From a virus (lineage: Duplodnaviria; Caudoviricetes): a DNA stretch of 52,898 nt. Below are positions 16,696 through 47,247 of this stretch, in pieces. The translations under genes and the position numbers were made by a program. The stretch is taken from the IMG/VR virus record IMGVR_UViG_3300020468_000009, positions 1-52,898 of that record. One strand, written 5' to 3'. A model generated the notes under the pieces. The model saw nothing but the letters and a program-made list of their open reading frames with translations, did no database searches and was not told the origin of the DNA. The stretch's first letter is position 1; every line of letters starts with the position of its first letter.

Positions 16696-19600
16696 TAATA
16701 CTCCATTGGTGTAAATACATCAGTAAACTCTTCTTCTACTTCAAACCTAAGTATATCATCATAAACATAGTAGAAATCTGGAAACTGTGAAAATAGTTCT
16801 TGTGCTTTTCTTCTTAACACTTCTCTAAAATATGTATATTCTTGTCTTTTAAGTGTTGCTCTTGGTCCATCTCTTCTTTGTATTTGTGCAAGAACACTAT
16901 CTCTTATTTCTAAATATGATACTAAACCTTGCATTGATGGCAATTCTTTTAATAACATTGTCTCTCCATTAGGAAGATTAACTGTTCTTTCACCTTCATT
17001 TTGTATCATGTTTATAAGTTGCAATCTTTTTGATTCTGCATCAATAGCTTTTGCAGTAGTAGATGTCTGTCCATAGCCAGGATATTCTTGACGTAATGCC
17101 ATTCTATAATCTGTAAGTATTTCATATTTTCTTTCAGGAGTTAGATTTCTATGTGCTCCTGACTCAAATAACAATCTTCTTTGATATTCATAGGCTAATC
17201 TACCTTGTGCTTGTCTTACAGCTGTAACATATTCATCTTCGGATAAATCTACTCTATCTCTATCTGCAAATGAATCAGCCCAAGCAACAAAACTAAATTC
17301 ATCAAGTGGGTTATCTGGAAATAAGTAATATCCAACATCTGGATATATATTTAAAATTTCTTCATTATCTCTACCAAATTTGACACCTTCATCTGTATAA
17401 CTTCTTTTCTTAATCTCTTTTGATTTAGAAACTAATAATGCTGTAGGGTCTAATCCAAACTGATTTACAAATTCTTTTGTAGCAAGAACTTGGTCTCCAC
17501 CATACTTAGAAAGTATTCTATAATACGCATCTGTAAGAATAGACATTCCATAAAAATGATGTTTAGGGTCATCACCTTTTGTTTGTAAAGGGTCTACGAA
17601 TAGTTGTCCACCTGGTGCAACTTCTATATCATATCTTATTACTGCACCTGTAGGAGCAGCAAACTGTATAAATGTTCTTGCTGCAGTTAAAAACATAGCT
17701 GTCTTTTTAGCTTCTTCTAACATTCTTGCTTGTTTAGCTGGTGTAGAATCATCATACAATCCTGTAGTAACAAACATTTTAATTACATCTTTGTATACGT
17801 TAGCAAATCCTCTTTGCATATCAGGGTCTGATGCACCCATAGACATTGCTTTTTTTGCCCATGAAGGTATTAATGCATTTGCATATGTAGCTGGACTTAA
17901 TGCACTCTTTGTTTCTCTTCCATATGGAAAAAATACTTTATCTATTAGTTCTGTTTCAGGTAATATCTTAGACGCTGGTATTCCAACTAATGGTCCAAGA
18001 CCAGGAGCAGGATTACCTACAATCATATTCAAAGATGATACATAACCTTTTAGATTTATTTTTGCATCTGGTGCTGCAAGTTCTTCACCTGTTACAGGAT
18101 TTTTAATTGTTCTTGAATCTCTATTTCCTTCAAACATCCAGTTTGTTAAGAACTCTGAACCAGGAAAGAAAAACATTTCTTCTCCTGTCATTGCATCTGT
18201 GTGAAAGAATCCTTCGTCATCATTATTTAAATCAGCTTTTCTTGCACCATCAATACCTCGTGTTATTTTTCTTGTTGCTAAGAATTTCTTTTGATTCAAT
18301 AATCTTGACCAAGTTCCCATAATCTCTATATATACTTCTGCGAAAGGAAAAGCTAGACGTAACATATCAGATACAACATGTCTTCTATTTAAATCATAAA
18401 GTAATGATTGTGTTTCTGATAATGCGTAGGCTTTTGCTGTTTCATCTAGTGTATCTAAATCTGCAATTCTTAAGAGTTTACCTTCATCAGCTGAAACTTT
18501 TCCTGTTGTATCTAATTGTTTAATAAAACTTTTTGGCAAGTTAGATGCTTGTGCTTGTTGTTTAATTTGTTTTCTAAGTCCATCATCAAAATATGCAATG
18601 TTAGTTTCCATAAATCTCCAATAGAATTGTCTAAATGCAGGAGAACGTGAAAGTCTATTTGTAGGTGCTGACATAACAATACTAAACAATCTTTCTACAG
18701 CAGCATCATAGGAACTTACTCTTTCTCCATCCATATCAAATACAGATTTTTTCATTACGTGTATTGGTTTATAAGGGTCTTTTTTAGCTAACCACTTTGT
18801 ATATGTTTTTTTATTACCAATACTTGCTTTTCTTCCTATAGCTACAGTTTTACCATCAATATCTACAAGTATTGCTTTGTCATCAACAGCATTTATACCT
18901 TTAGATATATGCTCTAATAATTCTGCATCTCCAGTTGTAACAAGTTCAAACTCTATTTCTGATTGTGGAGATTTTCTAATTCTTTTCATTCCTTCCATAT
19001 CTTCAAATACTATACGTGTACCATCTGGTTTAACTTCTGTAACTTTATATGAACCACCTGTTTTGTAATGAACTCTAGCTGCAACCGAATCAATATAATC
19101 ATCAGCCCATTTTCTATCATTTAATATTTTAATTTTTTGATACTTACCTGCTTCATCAGACCCATAAGCTAAAGCTGTTCTCCAACTACTCAAATCTCCA
19201 TCTTCATTCCAAAATCTATCTTTTATATTTTGTAGTCCAGATTTTATATCATCAACTCCACCTTTAAGTGTTGCTATTTCTGCAGCAATAGGGTCATCTA
19301 CTAATTGAAATATTTCTGAGACTGCAGCTCCGTGATATCCTTTATCTCCTTTTTGAACTTCTTTGAATGCAAAAGTTCTTTTAAGTTTATCACCATCTAA
19401 AATTCCACTGTGTGACATAGACATACTTGATTTATGATAAATACTATCTGCTAATATTTCATTGTCTCTAATACCAAACATACCTCTTTGTATGGTTCTA
19501 TCTATATCTAGGTCTTCATATCCTCTTACTCTTCTTAAAACAGATTGTCTATCTTTTCCTAATATCCAAGCAAATGCTGATAGAGGATGTGTAAATACAT

Positions 19601-22600
19601 TATCTAAATCATCTGCCCACATTCTGATTTGTTCTTCACCAACAACTCTTGCAGTCCATGCACCTCTAATAAGTATGAATGGTTTCCAAGCTCTATTCAT
19701 ATAGTTATCTCCTAATTTAGATAACCAACCTTGCACTAATGCATTAGCATCTGCGTCATCTGCTGATAAATCAAATTTTTTCCTAGCTGTTTTTACTGTC
19801 ATTTTTAACCAATCTGTAATACCTTTTTGGTCATTTGTTTGTAATTCAAATAAATCAGCTACTGGTTTTGCTAACATCTCTTCAAATTCAGAAAGTTCAA
19901 ACTCTCGTCCATCTTCTAAATTGACAGTTTTTCTAGTAGAACTTACTCTTGCTCTTTTAGAACTAGGTATAATTCTTGTCCAAAATTCTCTAGCTGGTGA
20001 GAACACTCTTAAAAATAATCTTGCATCTGGCAAAGGTAATGCACCTGATGCTAAATATTCTGATATCAAATGTGCAGTAGGTCTTCCAACAACTGCTTCT
20101 ATTTCATCAAAATTAGCACGTTTCATTAATGTATTTGTTGCTGTTGTAAGAACATCATCTTCAGTGGTTATGTCAGAAAAATAATTAAGTATTTGATTTG
20201 GAGATACCTTTGCATTTTTAAATACTTTAAATCCTGCTTTAGTATCAAATGCATCTTGTGTTTTTGTAAATAAAGTTTTAAGAACAGGACTTATCTTTGA
20301 CGCATCTCCTGTTCTAGGTCCAATAACATTTACTGTAGGATATTTCTTAATAAGCTCTTGTATCTCTTGAACAAATTTATTATCAATTCTTTGTGCAGTA
20401 TCAACAACTACTAATGGTCTGTTACCTTGATATACACCTTGCTCAGGTATTTTAGCTTGTGACCATTTACCTTTTCTTGCGTAGTTAATTGCACCAGTTG
20501 TACCTTTACCAGCTGGATTACTTGCAGAATCAAATATTGCAATAGTTATATCTGCATCATCAATGTTCTTTTGACTTCTTGCAACAAAATATTTATTAGC
20601 TGGCATCTTATCATTAATATTTTCAGAAGTTAATCTATTTCTTTCACGTTGTAATGTTTCTAATTTCTTTACAGCTGTGTCATCATTAATGTCATTAAGC
20701 CTTGCTTTTAACTGTGCTTCATGTTTTGCTAGAGATTGTTTTTCTTTGTTAATTCTTTTTTGTAAATTTTTATATGCTCTTTGATAACCAGGCATATCAA
20801 AACTATCATATTGTAATATTTTGTTTGGACCTTCTTCTATTAAGTTTGTAGCATATCTAAGTATTGATGCTTTAGCTTCTAGCTCTAATCTAGCTGCTAA
20901 AGATAATTCAGGTGCATCTCCATTCTTTATCCTTACATCATCAGCATCTAATGCTTTTCTTGCAATATAACCAGCTTGTAATTTATTTTGTATTTTTAAA
21001 TCATCTCTAACAGGAGAAAGCTCTAATTCTTTGTAAGCTTTTTCTAAACCTTTTATTTTTGATTTATCATTAGAAACTGTTTGTTTCAATCTATTGTATG
21101 TTGTAGTAAGAGCTCCTACTCTTTTATCTTTAAATACTGCTTCTTTTTCAGTCCTTGAAATTGTTTCATCAATAAAACCAACTTGTCTAGCAGTGTCATC
21201 TGTTAATCCATAATCTATTAACTCTGCTTCATGTAGTCCATAACTACCTGCTTTAGTTTGTGCAGAGTCTCCAAAACCAGGAGTTGCTGTACCACCTGTT
21301 TCTATATCAAGTTCTTTTGCAACTCTAAGTGCTTGTATTTCTGTACCTCTACCACCATTTGAAATAACCTTTGCAGGTAATACTTCTGCTTCTGCTATAT
21401 CTGTTGGTACTCTTTGTGCTGAATCAACTTTAGATAAAAAGTCATCTTTAATATCTTGTATGCTTCTTAATCTTCCAGACTTTTTAAAATTAGAGTTACT
21501 TATTATTTCATCAATAATATCTAATGTTTGTTCCATGTTAAAAGAAACATTATCTAAATTATTTCTACCTTTATCTAAGATATCAATTTTTTGTAAGTTC
21601 CAAGCTTCTTCTCCATATGCACCATAAAAATATTTGTTGGCTTCGTCAACACTAGCAACTAATTTACCAATTTGATTAACTACACCTTTTGGTATATTCA
21701 CAGCTTCAAACTTATCCATAATGTGTTTAAGAACTCCGCCTTCACCACCATAAATATCTAACATCATATTTAATTTTTGTAGTGAAGCTGGACTTCCTTC
21801 AAGAGCTTGAATAACTTCATCATCCATAGCATCAACAATTCTATCTAGTGCTCTTGTTGCAACATCATCATCAACTTTTGCAAACTTCATAAAGTTTTTT
21901 AATTCAAAAAAAGTATCATTTAAACTATCTGTTTGTATTCTTGGTGCAGGAAACACATTAAATAATCTTTCGAAGATACTATTTTTACTATTTAATTTCA
22001 TTGCAGTTCTAAAACCTACTGCTGATGTTTTATCTCCATAAACAAATTTAGCTGCTGCTTTTGATAATGAACCATTAAATAGTAATGACGTTGGGTCAAG
22101 TCTTGCCATTGCATCTGTAGTAGGGTCTTGAGCAGCTTCAACAAGAATATTTTTTATTGCTTGTTTATCTTCAGTATCCCTAAGTCTTCTGTAAAGTTTT
22201 GCACCACCAGCACTTCTTGCAATAGTTCTATCTGAAACTCTTTTACCTTGTTTTCCTAAAAGTATTTCTACTTCATCATATGTTTTTGCTTGTGCAAACA
22301 AATCTGCAATATCATCACCAGTTTTAGTTTCAAAATAAAACTCTCTTGCTTTAGGTACTTTTACTGTCTTTCTAACAACATTATCAATTAAGCCACTTGA
22401 TTTTTTTGTTTCTGTAAGGTTAAATGATTTTTTGATTTTTCCTGCTTTTGCTAATGCACCACCAGCATATGTTGCAGGGTCAGTTACTACTGTATAAACT
22501 CCGTCAATAATACCTGACAATAAATTAAAAGATTTCGTTCCTGGTTCAAATACTTCAACAGCTGCAACACGACCAGGAGATAATTTAACAGTACCTTTTC

Positions 22601-23324
22601 TACCTCTATAAGTTCCTGCATTACCTTCTCTAGTATTCATTTCTAATTGTGTAATTGGTTTGCCATAATATTCTTGGATAATTTGTTTTACTTCATCAGG
22701 ATTTGCACCTCTACCAACTAACTCTTTATAAACTTCTGTGTCTTCTGCAACTGTAGAATTACCAAAATAACCTTCACCTAAGTTAACTTTTTTACCTTGA
22801 CGTAATTGTTGAAAGGCTCTAGTAGCTACAGTAGGTCCTTGGTCTTGTAATGATTGTACAAACTCATTTCTACCATTAGGGTCAAGTAATGGTACTAATG
22901 TGCCTACACCTGTAAAAGCAAGTAGTGGATTCATTTTTCTTGCAGCATAATATTTCATACTTGCTGTGCCATATTTTTTTACAAATTGTGATGCAGACTC
23001 CATTCCAACTACTGCACCCCTTACTGCACCTCTTCCTGCAGCTTTAACACCTTCCCACCATGATGTTTCTTTTTCTAAAAATCTTTCTACAATACTTGTA
23101 AATTCTGGTGAGTCTTTTGTAAGTCCCATCAATGCACCTGCAACCTGTACATCTTTTGGTAAGAATCCATAAGTCTTAGATATCTCAGACATGTTATAAG
23201 GTATAGATGGATTGTTTGCGAAAAAGTTATCTATTTGTTCAGCTTGTCCAAGTAATTCATTTTTGTAAATTTCGTCCTGGTCTTCTTGCCAGGGTGCTAC
23301 CCAGTTCCACCTAAAAGCCGTCAT
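16695..23324 (-). CDS. Giant internal virion / DNA-ejection protein (2209 aa) with embedded SLOG-like domain
   Basis: Large helical protein in a podovirus-like module; KVISNGGRGTEIQAL...ETGG and RSQKNIDDADITI...GTTGAINYA...VNVIGPR. Confidence 0.7.
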   Translation of the reverse strand: MTAFRWNWVAPWQEDQDEIYKNELLGQAEQIDNFFANNPSIPYNMSEISKTYGFLPKDVQVAGALMGLTKDSPEFTSIVERFLEKETSWWEGVKAAGRGAVRGAVVGMESASQFVKKYGTASMKYYAARKMNPLLAFTGVGTLVPLLDPNGRNEFVQSLQDQGPTVATRAFQQLRQGKKVNLGEGYFGNSTVAEDTEVYKELVGRGANPDEVKQIIQEYYGKPITQLEMNTREGNAGTYRGRKGTVKLSPGRVAAVEVFEPGTKSFNLLSGIIDGVYTVVTDPATYAGGALAKAGKIKKSFNLTETKKSSGLIDNVVRKTVKVPKAREFYFETKTGDDIADLFAQAKTYDEVEILLGKQGKRVSDRTIARSAGGAKLYRRLRDTEDKQAIKNILVEAAQDPTTDAMARLDPTSLLFNGSLSKAAAKFVYGDKTSAVGFRTAMKLNSKNSIFERLFNVFPAPRIQTDSLNDTFFELKNFMKFAKVDDDVATRALDRIVDAMDDEVIQALEGSPASLQKLNMMLDIYGGEGGVLKHIMDKFEAVNIPKGVVNQIGKLVASVDEANKYFYGAYGEEAWNLQKIDILDKGRNNLDNVSFNMEQTLDIIDEIISNSNFKKSGRLRSIQDIKDDFLSKVDSAQRVPTDIAEAEVLPAKVISNGGRGTEIQALRVAKELDIETGGTATPGFGDSAQTKAGSYGLHEAELIDYGLTDDTARQVGFIDETISRTEKEAVFKDKRVGALTTTYNRLKQTVSNDKSKIKGLEKAYKELELSPVRDDLKIQNKLQAGYIARKALDADDVRIKNGDAPELSLAARLELEAKASILRYATNLIEEGPNKILQYDSFDMPGYQRAYKNLQKRINKEKQSLAKHEAQLKARLNDINDDTAVKKLETLQRERNRLTSENINDKMPANKYFVARSQKNIDDADITIAIFDSASNPAGKGTTGAINYARKGKWSQAKIPEQGVYQGNRPLVVVDTAQRIDNKFVQEIQELIKKYPTVNVIGPRTGDASKISPVLKTLFTKTQDAFDTKAGFKVFKNAKVSPNQILNYFSDITTEDDVLTTATNTLMKRANFDEIEAVVGRPTAHLISEYLASGALPLPDARLFLRVFSPAREFWTRIIPSSKRARVSSTRKTVNLEDGREFELSEFEEMLAKPVADLFELQTNDQKGITDWLKMTVKTARKKFDLSADDADANALVQGWLSKLGDNYMNRAWKPFILIRGAWTARVVGEEQIRMWADDLDNVFTHPLSAFAWILGKDRQSVLRRVRGYEDLDIDRTIQRGMFGIRDNEILADSIYHKSSMSMSHSGILDGDKLKRTFAFKEVQKGDKGYHGAAVSEIFQLVDDPIAAEIATLKGGVDDIKSGLQNIKDRFWNEDGDLSSWRTALAYGSDEAGKYQKIKILNDRKWADDYIDSVAARVHYKTGGSYKVTEVKPDGTRIVFEDMEGMKRIRKSPQSEIEFELVTTGDAELLEHISKGINAVDDKAILVDIDGKTVAIGRKASIGNKKTYTKWLAKKDPYKPIHVMKKSVFDMDGERVSSYDAAVERLFSIVMSAPTNRLSRSPAFRQFYWRFMETNIAYFDDGLRKQIKQQAQASNLPKSFIKQLDTTGKVSADEGKLLRIADLDTLDETAKAYALSETQSLLYDLNRRHVVSDMLRLAFPFAEVYIEIMGTWSRLLNQKKFLATRKITRGIDGARKADLNNDDEGFFHTDAMTGEEMFFFPGSEFLTNWMFEGNRDSRTIKNPVTGEELAAPDAKINLKGYVSSLNMIVGNPAPGLGPLVGIPASKILPETELIDKVFFPYGRETKSALSPATYANALIPSWAKKAMSMGASDPDMQRGFANVYKDVIKMFVTTGLYDDSTPAKQARMLEEAKKTAMFLTAARTFIQFAAPTGAVIRYDIEVAPGGQLFVDPLQTKGDDPKHHFYGMSILTDAYYRILSKYGGDQVLATKEFVNQFGLDPTALLVSKSKEIKKRSYTDEGVKFGRDNEEILNIYPDVGYYLFPDNPLDEFSFVAWADSFADRDRVDLSEDEYVTAVRQAQGRLAYEYQRRLLFESGAHRNLTPERKYEILTDYRMALRQEYPGYGQTSTTAKAIDAESKRLQLINMIQNEGERTVNLPNGETMLLKELPSMQGLVSYLEIRDSVLAQIQRRDGPRATLKRQEYTYFREVLRRKAQELFSQFPDFYYVYDDILRFEVEEEFTDVFTPMEY

Positions 23325-23915: not shown

Positions 23916-25662
23916 CTGCTCCTCCTAACAATGCTGCAAGATTAGGTGGTCCTTGTTGTTGAACTTGTTGTGCTTGTTGTAAGACAGCTTGTTCTTCTGG
24001 ACTAGGTTCTTCACCACTTGCTGTAAAGTATTTTTCTAAAATATCTCCAATGTCTTTTGGATTATTATAGATTTCTACTACAGCCATCATTGCAGCTTTA
24101 TCTCCTTGTTGTGACTGTTGTAACAACATAGAAAATAATATTTCTTCAGTTTTTTGTTTAGTTATTCTTTCATTAATTTGACTTAGATTTTCTAAACCAT
24201 CCATTTCTTGTTGCATAGTTTCTTTGTCTATAATACCTGCCTGTAACAATTGCAACCCAGTAATAATTTTGTTTGGTGCATCAAAAGAAGCCATTGCACC
24301 ATATTTTCTTTTTGTAACATAGTTCTTATCAATATCAGTTCCAGGTGTGTAACTTTCAGAAAAAGACGCACCTTTGTATGTACCACTAATAGGTTTTCTT
24401 TTTTTAGTAAATAATATTTCGTCTAACTCTAATCTTTTAGAATCTACTTCTTGTAATGCATTCTCAAGTATTGTGTGGTATTCAGATACCATTGCTCCAA
24501 CACCTGCTTCAAGTTCTTCTAGTCCTCTACCAGTAACAAAAGAATTTGGTGATATTGCATCATCTTGTACAGGATAACCTGCAACAACTCTTAATTGTCT
24601 TTCTAATCTACCTACGGACTCAAATAATTGATACGGTAGGTTATTGACAGGTTTGACAACTTGTGAACCAGGAGATAAATAATTTATAGAGTTTCTACCT
24701 TTTCTATATTGTCCTGACTCTAGTTCTCCAATAATGTTTGTTTCTGTAAATACTGCATCTTCCATAGCTATAACAGATAAAATATTAATCTTTGCCATAG
24801 ATGCCATAAGTCCTATGACTTGGTCAAATTGACCTTGTAATTTATCAAAGCTAAATCTTTTAGCAATAACAAACGAAGGACCTGACTTAAGTGGGTTAGG
24901 AACAAAATCAACAATTTTTTTAGATGCAGGATGCATAATGTATGTTCCTTCAATATTCATGTATTCAACAATTACTTCACCACTTTCATTTGCATTTTCC
25001 CAACTACCATCATTTGTATATTGGTTAAAAGAAATGTTGTAGTATTGTTCTTGTTTATCTTTATTGTCTTTTTCAAAATAAGCTTTAAGTTCTGGATACA
25101 TTTGAATTAAGTTTTTAACAGGAACTTTTTGTATAATTGCAAGTTCTTGTGGTTCTTGCATATTTCCATAGTATCCAGGAAAGCAATCATATGGATTACG
25201 TAATTCTGCACATGGGTACATGTTTCCATTTGTATCTGGTTTAGATGTTATTACCCATACTGCAAATCCATAACCAGGCAACCATCTAGCTACTTGGGGA
25301 AGTTGTAAATCTAATCTTTGCATTTTATCAAATGCAGTAACAATTCTTTCTAACTTATCTTTTTTACTTTTGTTTCTTTGACTATCTCTTGCATTTGTAA
25401 TATGTACGTCTAATGTAGGTACTTTTCCAATCTTTTGTGCAAGTCTATCTAATGCAGACAATAATAAGTTTGGTGCAGGTAATGTAAAAGAATCCATACT
25501 ATCCATACCTGGACCAAGTAAATCTCTTATGCCATGTTCTCCACCATTAAGAATGTTTCTAAATCTGCTTCTATCAAGAAGACTATCATCATGCATTTGC
25601 TTAAGATATACTGCTCTATCAATTATCTGGTCAGGTGTCAATTTAACTCCATGGTATGTCAT
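23908..25662 (-). CDS. Portal protein
   Basis: 584 aa directly after terminase; NPYDCFP, GQFDQVIG, LLQAGIIDKET, Gln-rich C-terminus. Confidence 0.8.
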   Translation of the reverse strand: MTYHGVKLTPDQIIDRAVYLKQMHDDSLLDRSRFRNILNGGEHGIRDLLGPGMDSMDSFTLPAPNLLLSALDRLAQKIGKVPTLDVHITNARDSQRNKSKKDKLERIVTAFDKMQRLDLQLPQVARWLPGYGFAVWVITSKPDTNGNMYPCAELRNPYDCFPGYYGNMQEPQELAIIQKVPVKNLIQMYPELKAYFEKDNKDKQEQYYNISFNQYTNDGSWENANESGEVIVEYMNIEGTYIMHPASKKIVDFVPNPLKSGPSFVIAKRFSFDKLQGQFDQVIGLMASMAKINILSVIAMEDAVFTETNIIGELESGQYRKGRNSINYLSPGSQVVKPVNNLPYQLFESVGRLERQLRVVAGYPVQDDAISPNSFVTGRGLEELEAGVGAMVSEYHTILENALQEVDSKRLELDEILFTKKRKPISGTYKGASFSESYTPGTDIDKNYVTKRKYGAMASFDAPNKIITGLQLLQAGIIDKETMQQEMDGLENLSQINERITKQKTEEILFSMLLQQSQQGDKAAMMAVVEIYNNPKDIGDILEKYFTASGEEPSPEEQAVLQQAQQVQQQGPPNLAALLGGAVG

Positions 25663-27550
25663 TTAAGTCTAACATATTGTAACCTTCATAACTAGGAGTG
25701 TAATCTAATCCCATATCTGCATATGTTAGTTTTTGCAAGTTTCTAATTACTTTCATTGGAAACCAGCTTGCCATAACTATATCACTTTTATAAGAGTTTT
25801 TATTGCCTTTTGAAGCAAAATATGAAAGTTGTTTTGTGTACGAAATACTCTTAGATTGTGCTTCTGCAGAGTAAAAAGGTAAAACAATTTTATGTTCTGC
25901 AAACATTGGTGCTAATGCTGTTACACCAAATCTTTCATCCCATTTGTTTTTATGTGTTTCGTGACCTTCTAATTTAATTCCATGCATATTTGCAAACTGT
26001 TTTGTAGTTTCATCTTGTCGTATAGCTTTTTGAAAACCATTTTCTTCTATAACCCAGTGATAACATCCATACATATCAAACCATTTTTTAATTAAGTTTC
26101 TTGCTTCTTCTAGTCCTCCACCTTGTTGATTCTCCATATCTACCATTTGTAACTTTATATCATCAACAGATGTTTCGACTGCCCATAAAAATCCTGCTTG
26201 ATATCCTGTAGCAGCTGGGTCAAGTCCTGCAACTAAGTAAGAAGATGCTGGAACGTTGCCTAAATCTATATTTTGGTCATAACATTCTTTAATAACTTCA
26301 GGATTAAACAAAGATAAACCTTTTGCTTGTGCTTTATTTAAATAAACCATCTCAAACCTTTGTACACCACCAGTAGTCATAGCATCACGTTTTCTATTCA
26401 TAAGCCATTTAAAACTTCTTTTATCTTCCCACAACATACATTCTTTATGTTCTTCTTCATCAAACTCTGGTATTACACACATTGAATCATGTGCTTCTTC
26501 TACTATTGTCTCCCATGCTTCGTTTTCTAATAATGCAGAATATAAATCATCAGGATGTTGTCTTGAACCAATAACTACCATTGCTGTATGTTCTTCTTTA
26601 CGAGAGCCTAATGTAGTTGTCCACCAATTTTTTGTATTCTTTCTTGATGCAGGTTGCATAGTAGATGAAAAATCTTCAATGTCATCTGCAATAATTATGT
26701 CACAGTCTCTTGATAGAATCTTACCACCTCTACCTAAACCAACCATTGTAGGTGATTTAATACCTGATACTGTTCTAGTAGATACTGTAAAACCATTCTG
26801 TGACCAAGACTTACCTGTTCTTGTTGCTGGTTTAAAAGAACCATTAGGTCCACAAAAATCTTCTTTTAATTTTTCATTGTTTTCTAATGTATCTAATACA
26901 GAAGATACAGAGTTTTTAGAAATATCTTCGTTACCACCTATCCAAAGTATTCTTATGTTTGGATTTCTACAAATAAGCCATATAACAAAATGTATTAGTA
27001 ATTCTGTTTTGCCGTGTCTTGGTGGTGATAGAATCATTTGTTGTCCACCAGTAAGTAAAGCTTTGTTAATTGACTTAATCCAATTGTTATGAAAGTCTGC
27101 TGTTTCAAAAGGTACACCTAGTTCTGTAAGAAAATATCTATCTCTAAAACCTTTAAATTCTTTTAAAGATTGTTTTGCATCATCAGATAGTTCCCAGTTT
27201 TTTGTTGCTACTTCTGTTTCTATATCTTCTCTATAGGCTGCCATAAGTCTAGCTACATTGCCAACTGTACAACCTAATCCTGCTGCAACTTCTTGTCTAG
27301 TTATCTTTCCGTTAAGAAGTTCTAATGCGTAACCTTCATTAACAAATTTTTCATAATATTGTCCTCTTCTTACTGTTGCAGCTTGTGGTTGATTTACATC
27401 TTTAATTGGTAATACATACTCTTCACCTTTGTCTTTAGCTCTTTTAATACGCATTGATATTCTTCTATAACAAGTTTTAGAACAATATTTTGTTGCGTTA
27501 GGTGGTAATGAATTGTTGCAGTCGTCTGCTATACAGACAACATTTACCAT
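25643..27550 (-). CDS. terL: Terminase large subunit with N-terminal Zn-finger/HTH extension
   Basis: Walker A PPRHGKT, Walker B IIIADDIE, GSRQHPDDLY, nuclease AGLDPA, VIEENGFQK, SDIVMASWF. Confidence 0.93.
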   Translation of the reverse strand: MVNVVCIADDCNNSLPPNATKYCSKTCYRRISMRIKRAKDKGEEYVLPIKDVNQPQAATVRRGQYYEKFVNEGYALELLNGKITRQEVAAGLGCTVGNVARLMAAYREDIETEVATKNWELSDDAKQSLKEFKGFRDRYFLTELGVPFETADFHNNWIKSINKALLTGGQQMILSPPRHGKTELLIHFVIWLICRNPNIRILWIGGNEDISKNSVSSVLDTLENNEKLKEDFCGPNGSFKPATRTGKSWSQNGFTVSTRTVSGIKSPTMVGLGRGGKILSRDCDIIIADDIEDFSSTMQPASRKNTKNWWTTTLGSRKEEHTAMVVIGSRQHPDDLYSALLENEAWETIVEEAHDSMCVIPEFDEEEHKECMLWEDKRSFKWLMNRKRDAMTTGGVQRFEMVYLNKAQAKGLSLFNPEVIKECYDQNIDLGNVPASSYLVAGLDPAATGYQAGFLWAVETSVDDIKLQMVDMENQQGGGLEEARNLIKKWFDMYGCYHWVIEENGFQKAIRQDETTKQFANMHGIKLEGHETHKNKWDERFGVTALAPMFAEHKIVLPFYSAEAQSKSISYTKQLSYFASKGNKNSYKSDIVMASWFPMKVIRNLQKLTYADMGLDYTPSYEGYNMLDLNDIPWS

Positions 27551-29180: not shown

Positions 29181-29710
29181 GCAATAAGTATCTCATCTAC
29201 AATATGGTAGCTAACTGTAATCTCCTTGACTATGTTCGTAGCTAATAAATCCTTTTTGGGGACTAGCATAGTTCGTGAAAAAAAATTTTTATTTTGGGCT
29301 TCTACAATTTTATATTTATTGTCGTACATCCAGTCTATAATGTAAGGCACTAACTCTTGTGGATTCCAGTAATATAAAGTCGAAGTTGGGTATTCCCAGT
29401 AAAATAAGAAATCTGCAAACGTTTTAAGTGCTGCCCCAATTTTCTTTTCTCCGTTGTCCTGGACAATCATTATCTCTAATGCAAAGTTGTCTGTATTTTT
29501 TATCTGTGTATCTGTTTTGACTTCAACGTATCTTGCACCTAATTCATTATTAATAATAAATAAATCTGCACCTTTCATTTGGTCATCGAATGTTACATCT
29601 CTACAAATAAACTGACGTTTGCCTTCATTGTCTGTTTGTGCTTCATAGTATTTTTTAACTAGGGTTTCCCCTTTTTTTCCTATTGCATTTTGTGTTTCGA
29701 AATCGAACAT
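29177..29710 (-). CDS. PD-(D/E)xK restriction-endonuclease-like nuclease
   Basis: GKKGE helix, GADLFI, YVEVKTD, NFALEI; RBS AGGAGG. Confidence 0.75.
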   Translation of the reverse strand: MFDFETQNAIGKKGETLVKKYYEAQTDNEGKRQFICRDVTFDDQMKGADLFIINNELGARYVEVKTDTQIKNTDNFALEIMIVQDNGEKKIGAALKTFADFLFYWEYPTSTLYYWNPQELVPYIIDWMYDNKYKIVEAQNKNFFSRTMLVPKKDLLATNIVKEITVSYHIVDEILIA

Positions 29711-29789
29711 AATCCTCCTGTAAATAACTTGTTTTATTCTAACATGCTGTTTATACTATCCACAACAAATAGTTTTTTTTAACTATAGA

Positions 29790-30111
29790 GTTACAGGTAA
29801 GAGCTATCGGACGGCAAAAAGCTGACTGCATCTTATGGATGGACTGGGATTACCACAAAGTCAGTACCCAAGGACTCTTGAAAGAAAAAAATTCAAAAAA
29901 TATGCATATATGTCCGCTATGCTCGAAAACACACTACACATTCCTACAGTAAATAATACGTGTTTTAACTATACATACTACAAAAACGTGTTAATATACT
30001 ACATAGGGAGACTGGTGTAGTCCTTGTTTGGTAATACCTGTAAGTAACCTGTAACAATAAACATCACGCAAGTGATGGTTCACAAACATCTTGCTGGTCT
30101 CCCACCTTTTT
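29790..30111 (+). ncRNA. Putative structured non-coding RNA of unknown family
   Basis: Multiple stems with plus-strand G-U wobbles, GCAA tetraloop hairpin at 30062-30077, terminal U-run, upstream TATACT at 29752-29757. Confidence 0.5.
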
Positions 30112-30652
30112 CAAAGTAAAAATTACCAGAAAATCCCGAGAACCTTACGTATATACATACCCCACCCCCTATGTTAAAACATAGGTCTGCCCTGTTAACG
30201 CACGGTGCATACCCCCCATTACTCTATAGTTACTCTGTAATCAAACGTTATGTCAATGAAAAGAAACGTAATACTCTAGGTACATACTGTAGTGTTTTGT
30301 ATAACAAATGGTAGCCCTATGCATTGAACCATACAAAGTACAATAAGCCTAGCTAACAGTACGTTATCCCAAGAAAACATTGTCCCCAAGACTGCATTAC
30401 AAAGCCAAGCACTCGTGCATGTCTTTGCCTATATATGCAGTCATTAACGGGGTACTACTACTAGTTCCCCCTACTGAAGTAGCTTTGCTACTTGGTCGGG
30501 GTGGACATCTAGCACATGTTTCCTATTAGTAAAGTATTTTTTCAAAATACCTAGCAATAAAAAAACGCTCACAAGCGTTTTCAATTATTGTTGACAAATA
30601 GGGACAGGTGCTCTTGTCCCCTTAGTAGTAGCTCAGTAGAAAGGATAAAACA

Positions 30653-31033
30653 ATGAGTAATTACGTAAATAAAGAAAAGAACTATGACCCGATTGGCTCG
30701 ACTGGATTCTTTGGCGTTAAACGCCTTAGTGTCCCGAGTAGAAAAGGACAAAGTTCTTTTTATCTTGTTAAGATGAATGACTTTTGGACTTCCAAAAGTA
30801 ATTCTCTTGGAACTGTTATCAATCAAGAGCCTTTAACAAACTATGATTGCATCATACAGTTTGAAGCTCTTGTGAATAACAAGAAGTTCCAACTTAACAA
30901 GAACGGAACAATGCCTAAAGAACTTGTATCCATGATGGGGACTAACGAACTCGCACGCGAATTCGAAGGAGTCCCATCATTAGACCAAATCAAAGAGATA
31001 AAATCTGGTTGGTCTAAAGGTCGTAAGGCATAG
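30653..31033 (+). CDS. Hypothetical early protein (first gene of the rightward arm)
   Basis: RBS AGAAAGGA; TTGACA at 30591-30596; own terminator. Confidence 0.75.
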   Translation: MSNYVNKEKNYDPIGSTGFFGVKRLSVPSRKGQSSFYLVKMNDFWTSKSNSLGTVINQEPLTNYDCIIQFEALVNNKKFQLNKNGTMPKELVSMMGTNELAREFEGVPSLDQIKEIKSGWSKGRKA

Positions 31034-31043
31034 TTCCTATGTT

Positions 31044-31086
31044 GTATAGCTCGGGGGGTTTATCCCCCCTTGCTATATATTTTTTT
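31044..31086 (+). terminator. Rho-independent terminator
   Basis: TATAGC..GGGGGG ttta TCCCCCC..GCTATA followed by a T-run. Confidence 0.7.
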
Positions 31087-31344
31087 GCATTCTGCAAAAA
31101 GTTCTAGCTAGTATCATACCAAAACCTACCCCCCATACAAGAAAGAGAACCCCATACAGACCCAGAAAATTTTTTTTTCTTTCGCATATGCAATGGGGAA
31201 CGGCTCTCTATACACGCGTGAAAGGGGATTGTCAAGTCTTCCCCATACATGAGGAAATTTGCAAAGCAAAAATTTTGGCGTAAGATTTTCGGCAAGACAT
31301 TTTTTGTTCTTAAATTTATTTATATTGTAGAAAGGAAATATATT

Positions 31345-31827
31345 ATGAGTAGAAAAAAGTATGTTCAGCATACGCCTAAGACAAAGAAAGCATTGACTAA
31401 GGTCATTGAGAGAAATGGTAAGTTAGTTCGTATCTATGTAGATACTGGATTACCTATCATCTCTAGTACGGCAGAGTATATGCTAGAAGTAGAGAATGCT
31501 ACTATACCACACACAGATTGTCGGTACTGTGGCAAATCTACAGACGCTATATCAAGCCTATGTTTTGAGTGTAGAGATTTGAACAAGGATTTAGAAATGA
31601 AGATGAAAAGAATTGCTAAGGTAACGAGAGAACAGATTAGAGAAGGAAGTGTTACTGAGACTGATAAAGGATTAGTACCTAAGAAGTTCGGGGTTACTGA
31701 TGGTAGTTGGAAACCATACAGAGATACTCCTGTTATGGAAGAAGATTATCGCACTTGCAGTCGTTGTTACATTGTCTTACCAATTAGCTTTGGTCGTAAA
31801 AGACTTTGTGAAGATTGCAGAAAATAA
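31345..31827 (+). CDS. Protein with two Cys4 zinc fingers
   Basis: CRYC..CFEC and CSRC..CEDC; start probably ATG 31345 with RBS AGAAAGGA. Confidence 0.7.
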   Translation: MSRKKYVQHTPKTKKALTKVIERNGKLVRIYVDTGLPIISSTAEYMLEVENATIPHTDCRYCGKSTDAISSLCFECRDLNKDLEMKMKRIAKVTREQIREGSVTETDKGLVPKKFGVTDGSWKPYRDTPVMEEDYRTCSRCYIVLPISFGRKRLCEDCRK

Positions 31828-31834
31828 AGCTAAG

Positions 31835-32230
31835 TAATTAGCTAGAGTACATAGCCTATACAAGTTAGCCCTTTGTTTACGGGGTTATGTACTCTGTGGT
31901 AATTATATTCATAGAGTGGATATGCCTTTCTACAACCCTGTAGACATACCAACTACTACTAGATATGTCCACTCTGTGAAGCTACCTACCATAAGACCAA
32001 AGGTAACGTTGCGTGTATTGTGGGCTTCATTTCCCACTCCTTTCTCAACGTTGCCTGTAGGTAGCTAGATACTCATACAGAACTATGTTCTCCCTTATAA
32101 AAAATGTTATTAGTCGTGTGGGTATCTAGCTATCTATTCCAAAAGATAGCAATCATGACAAGTTCGGTAATGGGCTAGTTAATTCAGTAGTGCCTCCTTA
32201 AGTGCTAAAGAAAAACTAGCCCTTGCCGAG
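31835..32230 (+). ncRNA. Tandem array of five long hairpins with anti-Shine-Dalgarno loops (putative antisense sRNA array)
   Basis: Five abutting hairpins with 13-21 bp of stem each; non-canonical stem pairs are mostly plus-strand G-U; loops contain CCCTTT, CCTTTCT, CTCCTTTCT, CTCCCTT, CCTCCTT. Confidence 0.65.
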
Positions 32231-32255
32231 AACCATAGAAAGAGAGAGATATATT

Positions 32256-32405
32256 ATGATATGTGATTTGTGTCATCAAGACACATACATGAAACTAATG
32301 ATAGAAGCAAACGTCAAAAGCTCTGTATATCACAGAGTTATGTGTCGTACTTGTGGCTATCAAACAGTTAAAAGAATGAATACAAAGAAAGGTGGTGTTT
32401 ATTAA
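32256..32405 (+). CDS. Small zinc-ribbon protein
   Basis: MICDLC...MCRTCG; start probably 32256. Confidence 0.65.
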   Translation: MICDLCHQDTYMKLMIEANVKSSVYHRVMCRTCGYQTVKRMNTKKGGVY

Positions 32406-33080: not shown

Positions 33081-33260
33081 ATGAATGAAGAAATTGTATC
33101 AATCAATGGCGACATTATAAGTGTTACTGTTGATGATGATTTGTATCTTAGAGTAAAACTCGGGATAACAGAGAAGTATCTTACTGAAGAACAGTTAGCA
33201 GAAGTCAATGATAGGACAGAGCAAGCTGTTACAGAGATACTTAGAAAGGAAGAAGAATGA
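33081..33260 (+). CDS. 59-aa acidic protein (not in ORF track)
   Basis: MNEEIVSINGDIISVTVDDDLYLRVKLG...EILRKEEE; RBS AAGGAGG. Confidence 0.65.
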   Translation: MNEEIVSINGDIISVTVDDDLYLRVKLGITEKYLTEEQLAEVNDRTEQAVTEILRKEEE

Positions 33261-40047: not shown

Positions 40048-42128
40048 ATTTGTTTCCTAAACATAAACGCAGCCATACTTGCTATTCTAGTCAAAATTAC
40101 AGGGACTACCACCTCTTGTGCTTTTTCTTTCTGGTCAGATGTCATATCATTTCCTATAGTTGCAATACTTATATCTTCAAAATCTATATCTACAAAAGTT
40201 TCTATTGGATTCTCTAAGAATGTTTCAAACTGTACCTCTGTTACTACGTCAGCAAGTGTGTAGTTTTCTACATCTGCATTCTCTACAGCTCTTTCAACGT
40301 ATTCTTCTACAGCTTCTGCTACAACTTCATCCTCTTGTATTGCTTCTGCAATGATTTCAACGTCTTCAGTCTGTACCTGTAGTACCTCAGCAACAACCTC
40401 AACTTGTTCTTCAGTAAGTATTTCAATATCATCAATAGCCTCCTCCACTACAGCCTGTATGACCACCTGTGTTTCCTCGGTGGCTTGAGATAGATTTTGT
40501 ACACCTATATCATTTACCTCTTCAAGAACTTCTACAACTTCTTCGGTGTCGAGTTCTTGCACAAAAGTTTCAATAACTTCTTCGATTTGTTCATCTGATA
40601 AATCTTCTTCCTCTATATCAGGTATCTCTATTATTTCTTCTAGTTCTTCAATCTCTTCTTCAACCATCTCTTCAGTAAGTACCTCTTCAATCTCCTCGGC
40701 AATATCTTCCACCTGTAGAACTTCAGGTTCTTCATTGTCATCTCTTCGTATATCCTTTTCGAGTAACTCATCTTTATCTTCTTTTATTTTCTCTTGAACT
40801 TCTTCTAAATCATTTTGTATATCTTCTTCAGAAGGTGGGAACAAATCTGTTTCTATATAAAATTCTACCATATCTATCTCTATTTCTTCTATATCCTCTA
40901 TAATTACAAACTCAAACTCTTCTAAATCTTCTAAATACTCTTCTACTTCTATGATTGTGTCTATGTATTCATCCATTTGTTCTTCAGATTCAAACTCCAA
41001 TATCTCAATCTCTTCTTCATATTCAAGTTTCTTAACATCTCTTTCCATTTGTCTGTCAAGCTCTTCAATCTCTTCATCTGTAAGTTCAACTTCCACATAC
41101 TCAGGTATATCAACATCATCAAAAAACTCTTCTCCGATTTCTGATTCCATAATTTGTAACTCATCTTGTTCATAATCTCTTTCAAGTTGTTCATCAGTTA
41201 ACTCAACTCCATACATTTCTAGGTTATTTTGTCTCTGTTGGTCTCTTTCTAATGTACCATCATCTATTTCTCTTTGTGAATATTCTACAATTTCACCACT
41301 ATCTAGCTCTATAGGTATATCTTTTATTTCTTCAGGTGGAATTATAAATATAGGTTCAGGCTCAGGTTCGGGTTCGGGTGGTGGCGGTAATGTAGTTGTG
41401 GTTGTTGTTGGTTGTATGTACTTAAATGATATGTCATCAAGTAGTGACCAGTCATTTATTGTTATTGTAAAGCTATCTATAAATGTATCTAAAGTGTCGT
41501 AAATGTTATAAACTACATCTTCAAACATAGTCTGTATGTTGCTGTTGCTTTGCCCTTCTAAAACATTCTCTTGTGTAGTTTCATCTGTATGTGTGTATGT
41601 AACTGTGCCATCATTATTTAATGCACCGATTCTAAAACCTACTTCATATATATCTATGTCTAATACTTCATCATCAACTGTTGTTGTATCAGGTAAGGTA
41701 AATATATAATCATTACTACTATCGCCATGTCTTTGATAATGTAAATTCATATGATAGTCAGTCATTCCACAGCACTGCCAATTACCATTACTGTGTTGGT
41801 CATCTATTTGTATATTGTTATCTACTTCATTACCTTGACTATCTAATTCATCTTCAGGTAAAACTATATCTGTAGTTTGTTCGTATGTATCAGGCACAGT
41901 TGTAGTAGTAGTTGTTGTAGTTGTGTCTGTGTTATTAGGAATAGTTGTGGTCGTAGTTGTTTCATCAGGACCATCAAATGTCTCTATCTCTTCTACTTCT
42001 CCAGGTATAGTCGTAGTAGTAGTTGTCGTTGTTGTAGTTGTATTATCTTCTTCATTAGCTAACGCTGAGAGCGGTAACATAACAAGAGATACTACTAACC
42101 ACCATTGCAGCAGCCGTGTCCGCAGCAT
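40044..42128 (-). CDS. Large acidic secreted / membrane-anchored protein
   Basis: Signal peptide (..LSALA), poly-Thr and PPPPEPEPEP linkers, long Glu/Asp-rich region, C-terminal VVVPVILTRIASMAAFMFRK. Confidence 0.8.
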   Translation of the reverse strand: MLRTRLLQWWLVVSLVMLPLSALANEEDNTTTTTTTTTTTIPGEVEEIETFDGPDETTTTTTIPNNTDTTTTTTTTTVPDTYEQTTDIVLPEDELDSQGNEVDNNIQIDDQHSNGNWQCCGMTDYHMNLHYQRHGDSSNDYIFTLPDTTTVDDEVLDIDIYEVGFRIGALNNDGTVTYTHTDETTQENVLEGQSNSNIQTMFEDVVYNIYDTLDTFIDSFTITINDWSLLDDISFKYIQPTTTTTTLPPPPEPEPEPEPIFIIPPEEIKDIPIELDSGEIVEYSQREIDDGTLERDQQRQNNLEMYGVELTDEQLERDYEQDELQIMESEIGEEFFDDVDIPEYVEVELTDEEIEELDRQMERDVKKLEYEEEIEILEFESEEQMDEYIDTIIEVEEYLEDLEEFEFVIIEDIEEIEIDMVEFYIETDLFPPSEEDIQNDLEEVQEKIKEDKDELLEKDIRRDDNEEPEVLQVEDIAEEIEEVLTEEMVEEEIEELEEIIEIPDIEEEDLSDEQIEEVIETFVQELDTEEVVEVLEEVNDIGVQNLSQATEETQVVIQAVVEEAIDDIEILTEEQVEVVAEVLQVQTEDVEIIAEAIQEDEVVAEAVEEYVERAVENADVENYTLADVVTEVQFETFLENPIETFVDIDFEDISIATIGNDMTSDQKEKAQEVVVPVILTRIASMAAFMFRKQI

Positions 42129-42141
42129 TCCATATTACCTC

Positions 42142-42327
42142 CTACATTAGTGCGTTGACCAACACCACCAATGCAGAGCCTGCAACCAACCAACCACTTA
42201 ATTCTTGTCGTGATATTTTTGAGTTTACTTTTTCGTGAAGTAAATCAATTCTTTCGTTTGTTTTTTCTTGTGTTTCAATAATTATATTGAGCAACTCTTT
42301 ATTTGTATAACCATTACCATTACTCAT
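42142..42327 (-). CDS. Small coiled-coil + TM protein (allele of 959..1144)
   Basis: Near-identical protein, divergent DNA. Confidence 0.7.
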   Translation of the reverse strand: MSNGNGYTNKELLNIIIETQEKTNERIDLLHEKVNSKISRQELSGWLVAGSALVVLVNALM

Positions 42328-42449
42328 TTTATCCAATCCCAATCTTCTTCTGTATAATTATCAGGTACATTTGGTGATACGAGGTCATCTAACCAAACAT
42401 AAAAGTTTTTTAAAAAGTATCCAAATATAAATCCGATTAAATAATCCAT
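42324..42449 (-). CDS. 41-aa membrane peptide (allele of 1141..1266)
   Basis: MDYLIGFIFGYFLKNFYVWLDDLVSPNVPDNYTEEDWDWIK. Confidence 0.75.
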   Translation of the reverse strand: MDYLIGFIFGYFLKNFYVWLDDLVSPNVPDNYTEEDWDWIK

Positions 42450-42456
42450 CAAAAGA

Positions 42457-43146
42457 TTATAGCATACGCTTTGGTCGTTTCCTTTTTATACCTTCAAATA
42501 TCGTACGAATATTTCTATGAAAATTTATACTAGCAGTTGAGTAAGACATATATTTTAGAATATCTTCTGTTGGTTCTATTTCTTTTAAGTCTATAGGTTT
42601 ATTAAAAAATATTGTGTTACATGGATTACCTTTTACTAAATTAATTGTTGCAGGTTTATTTATATCGTCCTGTACCCATGCAAGATTAATTGGTCTTAAC
42701 CAAGCATAAGGATAGAAAGAACCTATAACAGCAGAACAATTAGTTTTGTCTACATTGTCTAATGGGTTCATTAAAGACATTTCTAAATCTTTATCATCAG
42801 TTACAAATATCATACTTATTGTTTGTTGCAGTACAGCTCTTCCATCATCAGTAGCTCTAACAGATAACATATCACCCATCAATGTGTGCATATCATCAGA
42901 TGTACTATGAACTTTTTCATCTAACATATAGTTGTAATATGGTCCTTCTTTATTTATACCAAATTCTATTTGTACACTTAATATTCCAGGCAAAGTAAAA
43001 AGTCTATTATTTAATCCACCAATAGATGGACAACCATAAACATTGTTATTTATTTTCTTTAACTCTTGTTGTAATGAGGGATGCATAAAATCGTTAGGTA
43101 TATAAAAATATCCTGCTTTAGTTTTTTTTAATTTAGGATACACCAT
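42457..43146 (-). CDS. DUF6065-like paralog 4 (second copy)
   Basis: Same as 1274..1963 except DS to EG near the C-terminus. Confidence 0.6.
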   Translation of the reverse strand: MVYPKLKKTKAGYFYIPNDFMHPSLQQELKKINNNVYGCPSIGGLNNRLFTLPGILSVQIEFGINKEGPYYNYMLDEKVHSTSDDMHTLMGDMLSVRATDDGRAVLQQTISMIFVTDDKDLEMSLMNPLDNVDKTNCSAVIGSFYPYAWLRPINLAWVQDDINKPATINLVKGNPCNTIFFNKPIDLKEIEPTEDILKYMSYSTASINFHRNIRTIFEGIKRKRPKRML

Positions 43147-43865
43147 TACTTAAATCTTTTCTTAGACCAACTTGTATCACGATAATGATTTTGCATAGTA
43201 GCATTAAAACCATTTTCAGCTAAAACATCTAGCTCACCATCTTGTAGATACTCTGTCTCCATAGACCAGGACTCTCTTTGAAATGGTATTATCTGTGCTA
43301 AAGGTGTCCCTTTAGTTATAATGCCTGTAAAATCTTCTTTTAACCACATAGGAAAATGAAAGTTTAATACTTCTTTATCTGTATCTACTATGGCAGGTAT
43401 CATTCTAAGAGGTGTATCATGCCAACCAAAAGGTTGTGTAATTAAACAACTGTAACCTTTAGGTGTTTTAATTATTGTATTCCAAATGTAATTAACAACT
43501 TGACTATTGTATCCAGTAGGTGGTTCTATTATATTTGTACTTGTGTTGTGTATTGTAAATAACAGCTCATCACTATTCCACTGCAAATCAAATACATTGT
43601 CTTTGTTGTGTTGAACAATCATATCTTTACGTAGCTCTACAATATAACCTGCTTTCATAGTATCAATGAAAGGTAAACACTTTTTAAATGTCATGTTCTT
43701 TCCTTCATCTGTCATCATAAGTTTTTTATCAGGTGTTCCATCACTCATATAAACAGGTGACATAGAATACCAAGATGGCTTATAGAGATAAGCAGGTTTA
43801 GGTGCAGGTTGTATTTTAGAATATCGTTTATTTATAGCTACAAATTTAATCTTTTTGTTTAGCAT
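43146..43865 (-). CDS. DUF6065-like paralog 3 (second copy)
   Basis: Identical translation to 1963..2682. Confidence 0.7.
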   Translation of the reverse strand: MLNKKIKFVAINKRYSKIQPAPKPAYLYKPSWYSMSPVYMSDGTPDKKLMMTDEGKNMTFKKCLPFIDTMKAGYIVELRKDMIVQHNKDNVFDLQWNSDELLFTIHNTSTNIIEPPTGYNSQVVNYIWNTIIKTPKGYSCLITQPFGWHDTPLRMIPAIVDTDKEVLNFHFPMWLKEDFTGIITKGTPLAQIIPFQRESWSMETEYLQDGELDVLAENGFNATMQNHYRDTSWSKKRFK

Positions 43866-44568
43866 TACGCTTCCTAAACAGTTTCCTATATCCATTTTTA
43901 AATGAACCAAGATTATTTACATAGCCTCTGGCGGAAAGTTCTTCATCCCATTCTTGTAAAACTAAATTATACTCTTCTCTTTTATAAGGAACTATATAAC
44001 ATAATGGTGTGCCTTGTGCAATAAATACATCTTTTACACCATTCTTTAACATAATTTGTGGATTAATTAAATGATATTGGTCAGTGTGTATTATTCCATA
44101 AGCCACTTCCCAATCAGGATTGTTGTGCCATAACATTGGTATCTGCATTATTGAGTATCCATCAGGAGTAATACACTCCCAAGTGTTATCTAATTTAAAA
44201 ACAAAATCAAAATTAGAATCTCCATAATCAAGAAATTGGTCACGACTATGTATTACTATTTCTATTCCAGGTATTCCTGTTTCAAATCTCCAGTCACCAT
44301 TATCTTTGTTATACATTAATTGTAAATCACATGGTGCAGGTATTACATATCCAGTATTAAAAACATCTACAAAAGATGGGCATAACTTTGCTGTTCTTGT
44401 TTCACTGTTAGGACCAGTATGTTTGTAAGGGTCTAATGGATTATGTTCTATATCTGCAGCAGCAGGTGTATTTTTCCATATCTCAGGTATAAAATTTTTA
44501 GCAGGTTGTACAGTTACTTCTGAATTAAGTAATCCTTTTATAGGTGTTTGAAACTTTACATCTATCAT
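43846..44568 (-). CDS. DUF6065-like paralog 2 (second copy)
   Basis: Identical translation to 2663..3385. Confidence 0.7.
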   Translation of the reverse strand: MIDVKFQTPIKGLLNSEVTVQPAKNFIPEIWKNTPAAADIEHNPLDPYKHTGPNSETRTAKLCPSFVDVFNTGYVIPAPCDLQLMYNKDNGDWRFETGIPGIEIVIHSRDQFLDYGDSNFDFVFKLDNTWECITPDGYSIMQIPMLWHNNPDWEVAYGIIHTDQYHLINPQIMLKNGVKDVFIAQGTPLCYIVPYKREEYNLVLQEWDEELSARGYVNNLGSFKNGYRKLFRKRNAKQKD

Positions 44569-45257: not shown

Positions 45258-45273
45258 TCTCCACCTATGTTAG

Positions 45274-46667: not shown

Positions 46668-46686
46668 TTAAAAAAAAACTCCTTGT

Positions 46687-47013: not shown

Positions 47014-47039
47014 AATTTATCTCCAATATAATTAATTAA

Positions 47040-47246: not shown

Positions 47247-47247
47247 A

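Follow-up and report, generated by a model that had tools for sequence, protein, structure and literature searches.

The 52,898-nt stretch of DNA analysed here (the window) spans an entire virus record, in which nt 1-11715 recur at 41184-52898 with an ORF offset of 41,183, so that, for example, the ORFs from 1274 onward reappear from 42457 onward. Because both ends repeat each other, the record is a concatemer or a circularly permuted assembly, and since its first ~11.7 kb recur at its end, the unique genome is about 41.2 kb long. The known packaging and structural genes lie on the minus strand, and a block of small early-type genes lies on the plus strand (Table 1). The phage GenBank collection holds no DNA match to the window in either near or distant search mode and no match to the early Zn-finger protein described below; for the capsid protein, its best matches are below 30% identity and come from actinobacterial phages only. 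Judged by sequence against that collection, this is a phage without a close cultured relative. The stretch is present in marine metagenome runs of nine studies, with no RNA run among those listed, and one metagenome contig of 41,216 nt (L087) encodes a Zn-finger protein with 97.5% identity. Among the other features of the record are a 2,209-aa ORF on the minus strand (16695-23324) that has no PHROG family and a sub-threshold Pfam match to cpYpsA (20.4 bits, cut-off 26.2), and a gene-free stretch of 942 nt (29711-30652) between the divergent late and early blocks, which folds with a z score of -6.18 (20 shuffles) and contains a bidirectional terminator-like hairpin at 30561-30582. Scans for tRNA and tmRNA genes found none in the window or in eight related loci.

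Table 1. Features of the window that bear on the early intercistronic spacer, in order of position.
Feature	Position	Strand	Description	Basis
SU10-type capsid protein	10291-11418	-	structural gene	
Terminase	25643-27550	-	packaging gene	
Leader of first early gene	30623-30644	+	TAGTAGTAG (30623-30631), CTCA, GTAGAAAGG (30636-30644)	
Block of small early-type genes	30653 to ~38900	+	8.2 kb	ORF list
First early gene	30653-31033	+	126 aa, conserved across the clade	
Terminator-like hairpin	31052-31072		follows the first early gene	
Zn-finger ribosome site	31325-31335	+	TTGTAGAAAGG: SD GAAAGG plus 5' flank TTGTA	
Early Zn-finger gene	31345-31827	+	160 aa, two CxxC pairs	ORF
Structured intercistronic RNA (spacer)	31828-32255	+	428 nt, tandem long hairpins, from the Zn-finger gene to the 49-aa gene	
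Hairpin 2	31908-31980	+	17-bp stem with G-U pairs, 39-nt loop	minimum-energy and centroid folds
Anti-RBS tract	31925-31935	+	CCTTTCTACAA, 5' side of the hairpin-2 end loop	
Second single-stranded tract	31953-31961	+	CTACTACTA, 3' end of the hairpin-2 loop	
Hairpin-3 loop tract	32037-32047	+	CTCCTTTCTCA, with CCTTTC at 32039-32044, 3' of a small apical hairpin	
Hairpin 4	32065-32135	+	most widely conserved spacer module; long stem, loop TGTTCT ... ATGTTA	
Apical loop of last hairpin	32193-32199	+	CCTCCTT, complementary over 7 nt to AAGGAGG at the ribosome site of gene 33081	
Zn-ribbon gene	32256-32405	+	49 aa, directly 3' of the spacer; anchor for finding relatives	

Neither PHROGs nor Pfam assigns a family to any of three early genes, namely the first one, the Zn-finger gene and the 49-aa gene. 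The non-coding stretch ahead of the Zn-finger gene (31200-31345) is better conserved among three genomes than the gene itself, and a 10-nt insertion after position 31313 occurs among natural variants. The spacer between the Zn-finger and 49-aa genes folds on the plus strand to -157.3 kcal/mol with a z score of -9.83; the minus strand gives a weaker z score (-3.92) because many of the stem pairs are G-U. Nine of its 94 consensus pairs are compensated among three genomes, three of these in the stem of hairpin 2. In hairpin 4, 8 of 14 stem pairs are compensated in seven lineages, and a covariance model recovers 24 loci (the window and 23 related ones) at 49.6-82.1 bits on the plus strand and at no more than 29.9 bits on the minus strand. 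Rfam 15 has no match at the gathering score anywhere in the window, and at E <=10 over 29700-32400 it yields eight chance-level matches of at most 21 bits, none of them c4 (RF01695). The stem motif AGCTAYCTAY shows no excess elsewhere in the window. A sigma-70 promoter scan returned fewer matches than in shuffles and no convincing promoter for the spacer, and the interval from 31827 to 31925 holds no convincing terminator, with weak terminator-like matches confined to the hairpins.

The anti-RBS tract of hairpin 2, CCTTTCTACAA, begins 98 nt past the stop codon of the Zn-finger gene and, as both the reading of the window and a pattern search confirm, is the exact reverse complement of TTGTAGAAAGG, which comprises the SD and 5' flank of that same gene. 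The two lie 600 nt apart and are the sole two exact copies in the window; the GG of the SD stands 9 nt from the ATG. With up to one mismatch the 11-mer has six matches against 1.69 expected, a count reached in 2 of 100 shuffles. The original prediction had also named two shorter matches and a local stem, and all three are there: a 9-nt match to GTAGAAAGG ahead of the first early gene, an 8-nt match of the hairpin-2 loop to TAGAAAGG (33242-33249, plus strand) in the ribosome site of the gene whose ATG is at 33257, and a TCTACA/TGTAGA stem (31929-31934 with 31939-31944) predicted with pair probabilities of 0.78-0.96. In the predicted fold the UCUACA part of the tract thus sits in a 6-bp local stem with UGUAGA, and its CC/UU part is largely unpaired (C31925, U31928). 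Among the three genomes, three pairs of the hairpin-2 stem have changed on both sides and the loop is invariant, which argues for a sequence-specific role of the loop; a homologous hairpin 2 with further compensated stem changes is present in L021-L025. The hairpin-3 tract is likewise unpaired in the fold and is complementary over 8 nt to AGAAAGGA, which forms part of the ribosome sites of the genes at 31345 and 33257; it is not kept in the close relative L020, and C32046T occurs among natural variants.

The type of ribosome site that these loops complement is shared by early genes, as had been claimed: GAAAGG occurs in 5 of 59 start regions, all of them in the early plus-strand block, and in none of the 40 late ones. 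On the plus strand of the 8.2-kb early block CCTTTC occurs at two sites only, 31925 and 32039, both in spacer loops. When 14 non-trivial CCTTTC sites of the 41.2 kb are extended into the flanks against the five GAAAGG-type start regions, hairpin 2 gives the longest extension, 5 nt, and the next reaches 4. Hybridisation energies set the loop apart far less. Among the 59 start regions the gene at 30653 ranks third and the Zn-finger gene eighth as partners of the loop (taken as 41 nt), with two late genes ahead of both, and dinucleotide-shuffled loops find best partners at a mean of -23.9 kcal/mol against -23.2 observed. Within the genome the match is thus unremarkable by energy, shuffled loops being equal to the real one, and the 11-mer taken alone within one genome is suggestive and no more.

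The predicted fold suggests how the two partners might meet. The Zn-finger ribosome site is predicted to form a local hairpin with GAAAGGAAA as its apical loop and the AUG in its stem. Because both sites fold locally, the first contact would be between two loops, and two short stems would have to open. The 11-mer duplex is calculated at -13.7 kcal/mol, and opening costs +3.4 kcal/mol on the side of the start region and +4.2 kcal/mol on the side of the loop. A fold of the whole 981-nt message lacks the long-range pairing; in it, local stems take up the SD flank and one half of the anti-RBS tract. A second candidate partner is the leader of the first early gene, where two 9-nt stretches are complementary, in antiparallel order, to opposite ends of the hairpin-2 loop: TAGTAGTAG, the exact complement of CTACTACTA, and GTAGAAAGG, opposite the anti-RBS tract. 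Their duplexes are calculated at -11.1 and -10.0 kcal/mol. Pairing with this message would be in trans, because a terminator-like hairpin follows the first gene.

Relatives were found through the neighbouring proteins, first two close ones and then the whole clade. The 49-aa gene occurs in 67 viral contigs, and in 46 of them the Zn-finger gene lies upstream. Metagenomes contribute 80 loci of the same lineages, 36 of which have the Zn-finger gene; since all 36 belong to clades already sampled, they are within-clade variants and no independent replicate. When viral contigs were scanned for exact copies of the hairpin-2 loop, the two close relatives alone came up. The anti-RBS tract and its ribosome site are both invariant in the window, L020, L026, L087 and L089, so no covariation can be read from the window's 11-mer pair itself, and the exact 5-nt extension occurs in the window's own clade alone. 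Contig comparison of four natural populations found no joints, both 11-mer sites unvaried and nearby positions variable, and with neither site varying these populations give no test of covariation. Two further observations count against the original prediction. In L026 the RBS flank of the gene at 30653 has changed and the loop has not followed. L031-L034 of another clade, whose Zn-finger proteins are only about 28-30% identical, have the window's 16-nt stretch containing the RBS, TATATTGTAGAAAGGA, in identical form and are without CCTTTCTACAA or a loop of the hairpin-2 type. Over the clade as a whole, spacers combine long hairpins in mosaic fashion, the stems being conserved and the content variable. 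Most lineages present a CCUUUC-type tract in an unpaired loop; the spacers that lack the motif are those of L035/36/60, L073 and L074/77/78.

The lineages together allow a comparison that the window alone does not. Spacers were matched against the 24 nt before start codons, pairing each spacer either with its own genes or with those of other lineages, and gene starts were called by a simple ad hoc rule. From the clade of 46 related loci, with 23 RBS classes, 18 representatives were used; dropped as near-copies of kept rows were L038, L061, L072, L075 and L084, together with the class of L020 and L026, whose 11-mer is that of the window. Over all upstream genes, the longest Watson-Crick match averages 9.0 nt for own genes and 7.85 nt for those of other lineages, a difference that none of 20,000 permutations reached. 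Genes downstream of the spacer, treated in the same way, give 7.78 nt for own and 7.81 nt for other lineages (p 0.60). The ribosome site of the Zn-finger gene alone separates the two less widely (7.78 versus 7.22 nt, p 0.012). Matches of at least 10 nt fill 6 of 18 own cells and 19 of 306 cross-lineage cells. In the 13 lineages that bear a CCUUUC/GAAAGG core, the match extends past the core by 2.92 nt in own pairings and 1.67 nt in cross pairings (p 6e-5), although five of the 13 (L028, L032, L037, L041 and L056) have own extensions of just 0-2 nt. These permutation p values overstate independence because the lineages are related; with one row per clade (nine clades), all 12 possible picks give p 0.00015-0.011.

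Calculated duplex energies agree in part. Restricted to loops, upstream start regions pair at -18.5 kcal/mol with their own spacer and at -16.8 kcal/mol with others (p 0.011), against -19.34 and -18.88 kcal/mol for downstream start regions (p 0.25), which in absolute terms bind the loops at energies as low as the upstream ones do. Over whole spacers the means differ (-19.31 own versus -18.40 kcal/mol cross, p 0.008), and the minima do not separate (-22.57 versus -22.00 kcal/mol, p 0.18). The best-matched target also differs between lineages. In the window it is the Zn-finger gene (11 nt), and in other lineages it is often one of the two genes that precede this one. L021 and L085 match the first gene (10 nt each), and the middle gene is matched in L027 (10 nt), in L031 (13 nt, this gene only) and in L110 (9 nt, via the opposite flank). 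L065 matches its Zn-finger gene over 9 nt with both flanks unlike the usual SD, and in L073 a 12-nt match lies over the end of the SD and the spacer that follows it. On this comparison of sequences, spacer loops appear to co-vary with the start regions of their own upstream early genes, and to do so in a lineage-specific way. Of the compensatory changes of loop and RBS expected under the original prediction there are signs in this tracking of upstream RBS flanks across lineages, and none in the window's own 11-mer, which is invariant.

Could pure chance have produced this pattern, by way of an AT-rich 11-mer match and of a clade signal that arises from shared ancestry and the choice of rows and starts? 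By simple counting, about four exact 11-nt complements would be expected between the 428 nt of the spacer and one strand of 41 kb, matches of 10-11 nt do occur across lineages in the cells counted above, and start sites were called by the ad hoc rule. Yet the downstream-gene control, run by the same procedure, shows no excess, the result stands for every one-per-clade pick, and both CCTTTC copies of the 8.2-kb block sit in spacer loops. We regard chance as an improbable account of the whole.

The same data bear on two readings in which the loops would not act as RNA on the plus strand. In the first, the 11-mer and its inverted copy would be DNA operators that bind an early protein, perhaps the Zn-finger protein itself, and would co-vary within a lineage too. 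The inverted pair does flank the gene of the Zn-finger protein, and TCTACA-N4-TGTAGA in the loop is a perfect palindrome. Against operators, the shared core is always an SD at working distance from a start codon, the copy is in every case placed in an unpaired loop of a co-varying RNA, and the long matches hit single start regions, such as the one gene matched over 13 nt in L031, instead of a common motif; this makes operators the most doubtful of the readings considered here. In the second, which is nearly as doubtful, GAAAGG would be read on the minus strand as the true ribosome site of mini-genes, 11-22 codons long, that run antisense to the early operon. Seven of 15 cores are indeed followed at 6-12 nt by an ATG and a frame of 11-22 codons, among them the window's two cores, spaced at 8 and 12 nt. 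The remaining eight cores have no start codon, however, and in the window the hairpin-2 tract combines the 12-nt spacing with a frame of only 11 codons. Folding, G-U pairing and the covariance model each point to the plus strand, and the two-sided changes in stems keep a pairing that a coding frame does not need. The peptides are alike only where conserved stems force likeness, and a CAU ahead of CCUUUC is equally expected from the antisense image of an SD followed by AUG.

The reading we prefer, and to which we give about an even chance, is that the spacer is an anti-ribosome-site RNA in the early operon that pairs with immediate-early start regions and limits their translation. The spacer would be transcribed on the plus strand, either within the early message or as a product of its processing, and would fold into a row of long hairpins, several of which would present a single-stranded CCUUUC-type pyrimidine tract. 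Such a tract would be the antisense image of the GAAAGG-type ribosome sites used by early genes only. The hairpin-2 loop would pair over 11 nt at the Zn-finger ribosome site, probably on the same RNA and hence in cis, and in trans with the first early gene, whose leader offers the two 9-nt stretches. Pairing might start between the exposed SD loop and the exposed CCUU and spread as the local stems, both short, are opened; the SD would then be out of reach of the 30S subunit, and RNase III could find a target in the double strand so formed, with the outcome that translation of immediate-early genes is limited or ended. From complementarity and its comparative behaviour we infer the pairing itself, its action in cis or in trans, the direction of repression and the part of RNase III, and with them the feedback shut-off of early genes. 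The idea that the loop is aimed at early-gene ribosome sites, central to the original prediction, thus comes out plausible and with comparative backing, which it owes to the lineages and not to the window's 11-mer, where covariation is lacking.

The main competitor keeps the structured RNA and gives it another job, such as RNase III processing, stabilising hairpins placed between early genes, or a platform for a protein; the pyrimidine loops would then be generic and the window's 5-nt extension to 11 nt a matter of chance. A generic pyrimidine loop could be a look-alike of the 3' tail of 16S rRNA, or alternatively a binding site for ribosomal protein S1. Consistent with such a role are the unremarkable within-genome statistics, the equally low energies of downstream start regions, and the long near-perfect stems, which, to judge from the fold, resemble RNase III substrates. 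In L085, moreover, the loop bears a long anti-SD tract of generic type, which fits the sites of many lineages equally well (seven cross cells of at least 10 nt). A generic anti-SD tract nevertheless leaves unexplained the preference of loops for upstream start regions of their own lineage, the matches that are unlike the usual SD on both sides (L065, L031-33) and those that lie over the spacer between SD and start codon and not over the SD (L073, L035). We consider this other role unlikely, though the likeliest of the alternatives.

By analogy, the closest described mechanism is the 3'UTR-5'UTR pairing of the icaR mRNA of Staphylococcus aureus, in which a pyrimidine-rich anti-SD motif in the 3'UTR is reported to pair with the SD of its own message, to block the initiation complex and to create a substrate for RNase III (PMC3868564). 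The likeness lies in an anti-SD motif downstream of the stop codon that is complementary to the SD of the same gene. The present case differs in being a 428-nt multi-hairpin intercistronic spacer of a phage with several loops, in that the best target in some lineages is another early gene, possibly on another transcript, and in that the pairing is a computed one. Among phages, the closest precedent would be the c4 antisense RNA of P1 and P7, which goes back to work of Citron and Schuster in 1990. It is reportedly made from the same operon as its target and pairs through exposed loops with the ribosome-site region of an early gene, and its pairing specificity is said to differ between related phages. 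Unlike c4, to which it has no Rfam match, the spacer is downstream of its candidate targets, is far larger and modular, and has the SD itself as the core of its complementarity.

Small RNAs of Gram-positive bacteria that block SDs, such as RNAIII with its 3' hairpins and RsaE/RoxS, do so as stand-alone transcripts with unpaired UCCC-type loops that act on several messages. The spacer resembles them as a multi-hairpin RNA with unpaired pyrimidine tracts directed at several SD regions; in contrast to those stand-alone bacterial RNAs with UCCC-type loops, it is a phage spacer for which the promoter scan gave no convincing promoter of its own. Switching from early to middle expression in phages is usually credited to proteins, namely sigma factors, anti-sigma factors, RegA and RegB. 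If the preferred reading is right, the spacer would be an RNA-only limit on immediate-early expression that is built into the early operon. In phage T4 the RegB endoribonuclease is reported to attack the SD (GGAG) of the phage's own early messages (PMC1702504). Both cases would involve an early shut-off through a class-specific SD mark of early genes, but RegB is a protein nuclease that acts on GGAG, and the agent proposed for the present phage is an RNA, with GAAAGG as the mark. Among the matches listed from the literature on phage RNAs that pair with ribosome sites, a spacer array of this kind is undescribed.

A bolder version of the preferred reading takes the variation between lineages at face value. 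The spacer might be a modular 'address array' of exchangeable hairpin cassettes, each antisense to one immediate-early start region (the SD, its flank and sometimes the AUG), which would provide a timed, RNA-only shut-off of individual genes and which shuffling or editing of cassettes between phages would retarget. We put this forward tentatively and think it less probable than the simpler reading. The clade is abundant in marine metagenomes, and among its natural variants are dozens whose loop and target appear to have changed together.

Some details of the spacers are recorded here for their own sake. Two candidates were set aside: a tRNA T-arm look-alike in a hairpin insert of the L037 spacer (~2413-3000), in which ARAGORN calls no tRNA, and a second complementary segment of 7 nt in the L021 clade, which is not kept in L022, L023 and L025. 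The spacers of L027-L041 consist of repeated hairpins with variable inserts and near-identical stems, AGCTATCTA.../...TAGGTAGCT and TGTAGCACATA.../...TGTGTGTTACA (for example L028 2577-3000, L032 2338-3000 and L041 2511-3000), and the number of hairpin units varies between close relatives as if recombination at the repeated stems had gained or lost cassettes. As RNA structures, both the mosaic array of hairpins and the conserved motif of hairpin 4 are uncatalogued. Hairpin 4, which is without an Rfam match, has a co-varying stem of 12-14 bp and the invariant loop elements TGTTCT and ATGTTA, with examples at L021 2883-2958, L073 2799-2872 and L065 2429-2506, and on reading of the alignment its short inner helix seemingly co-varies too.
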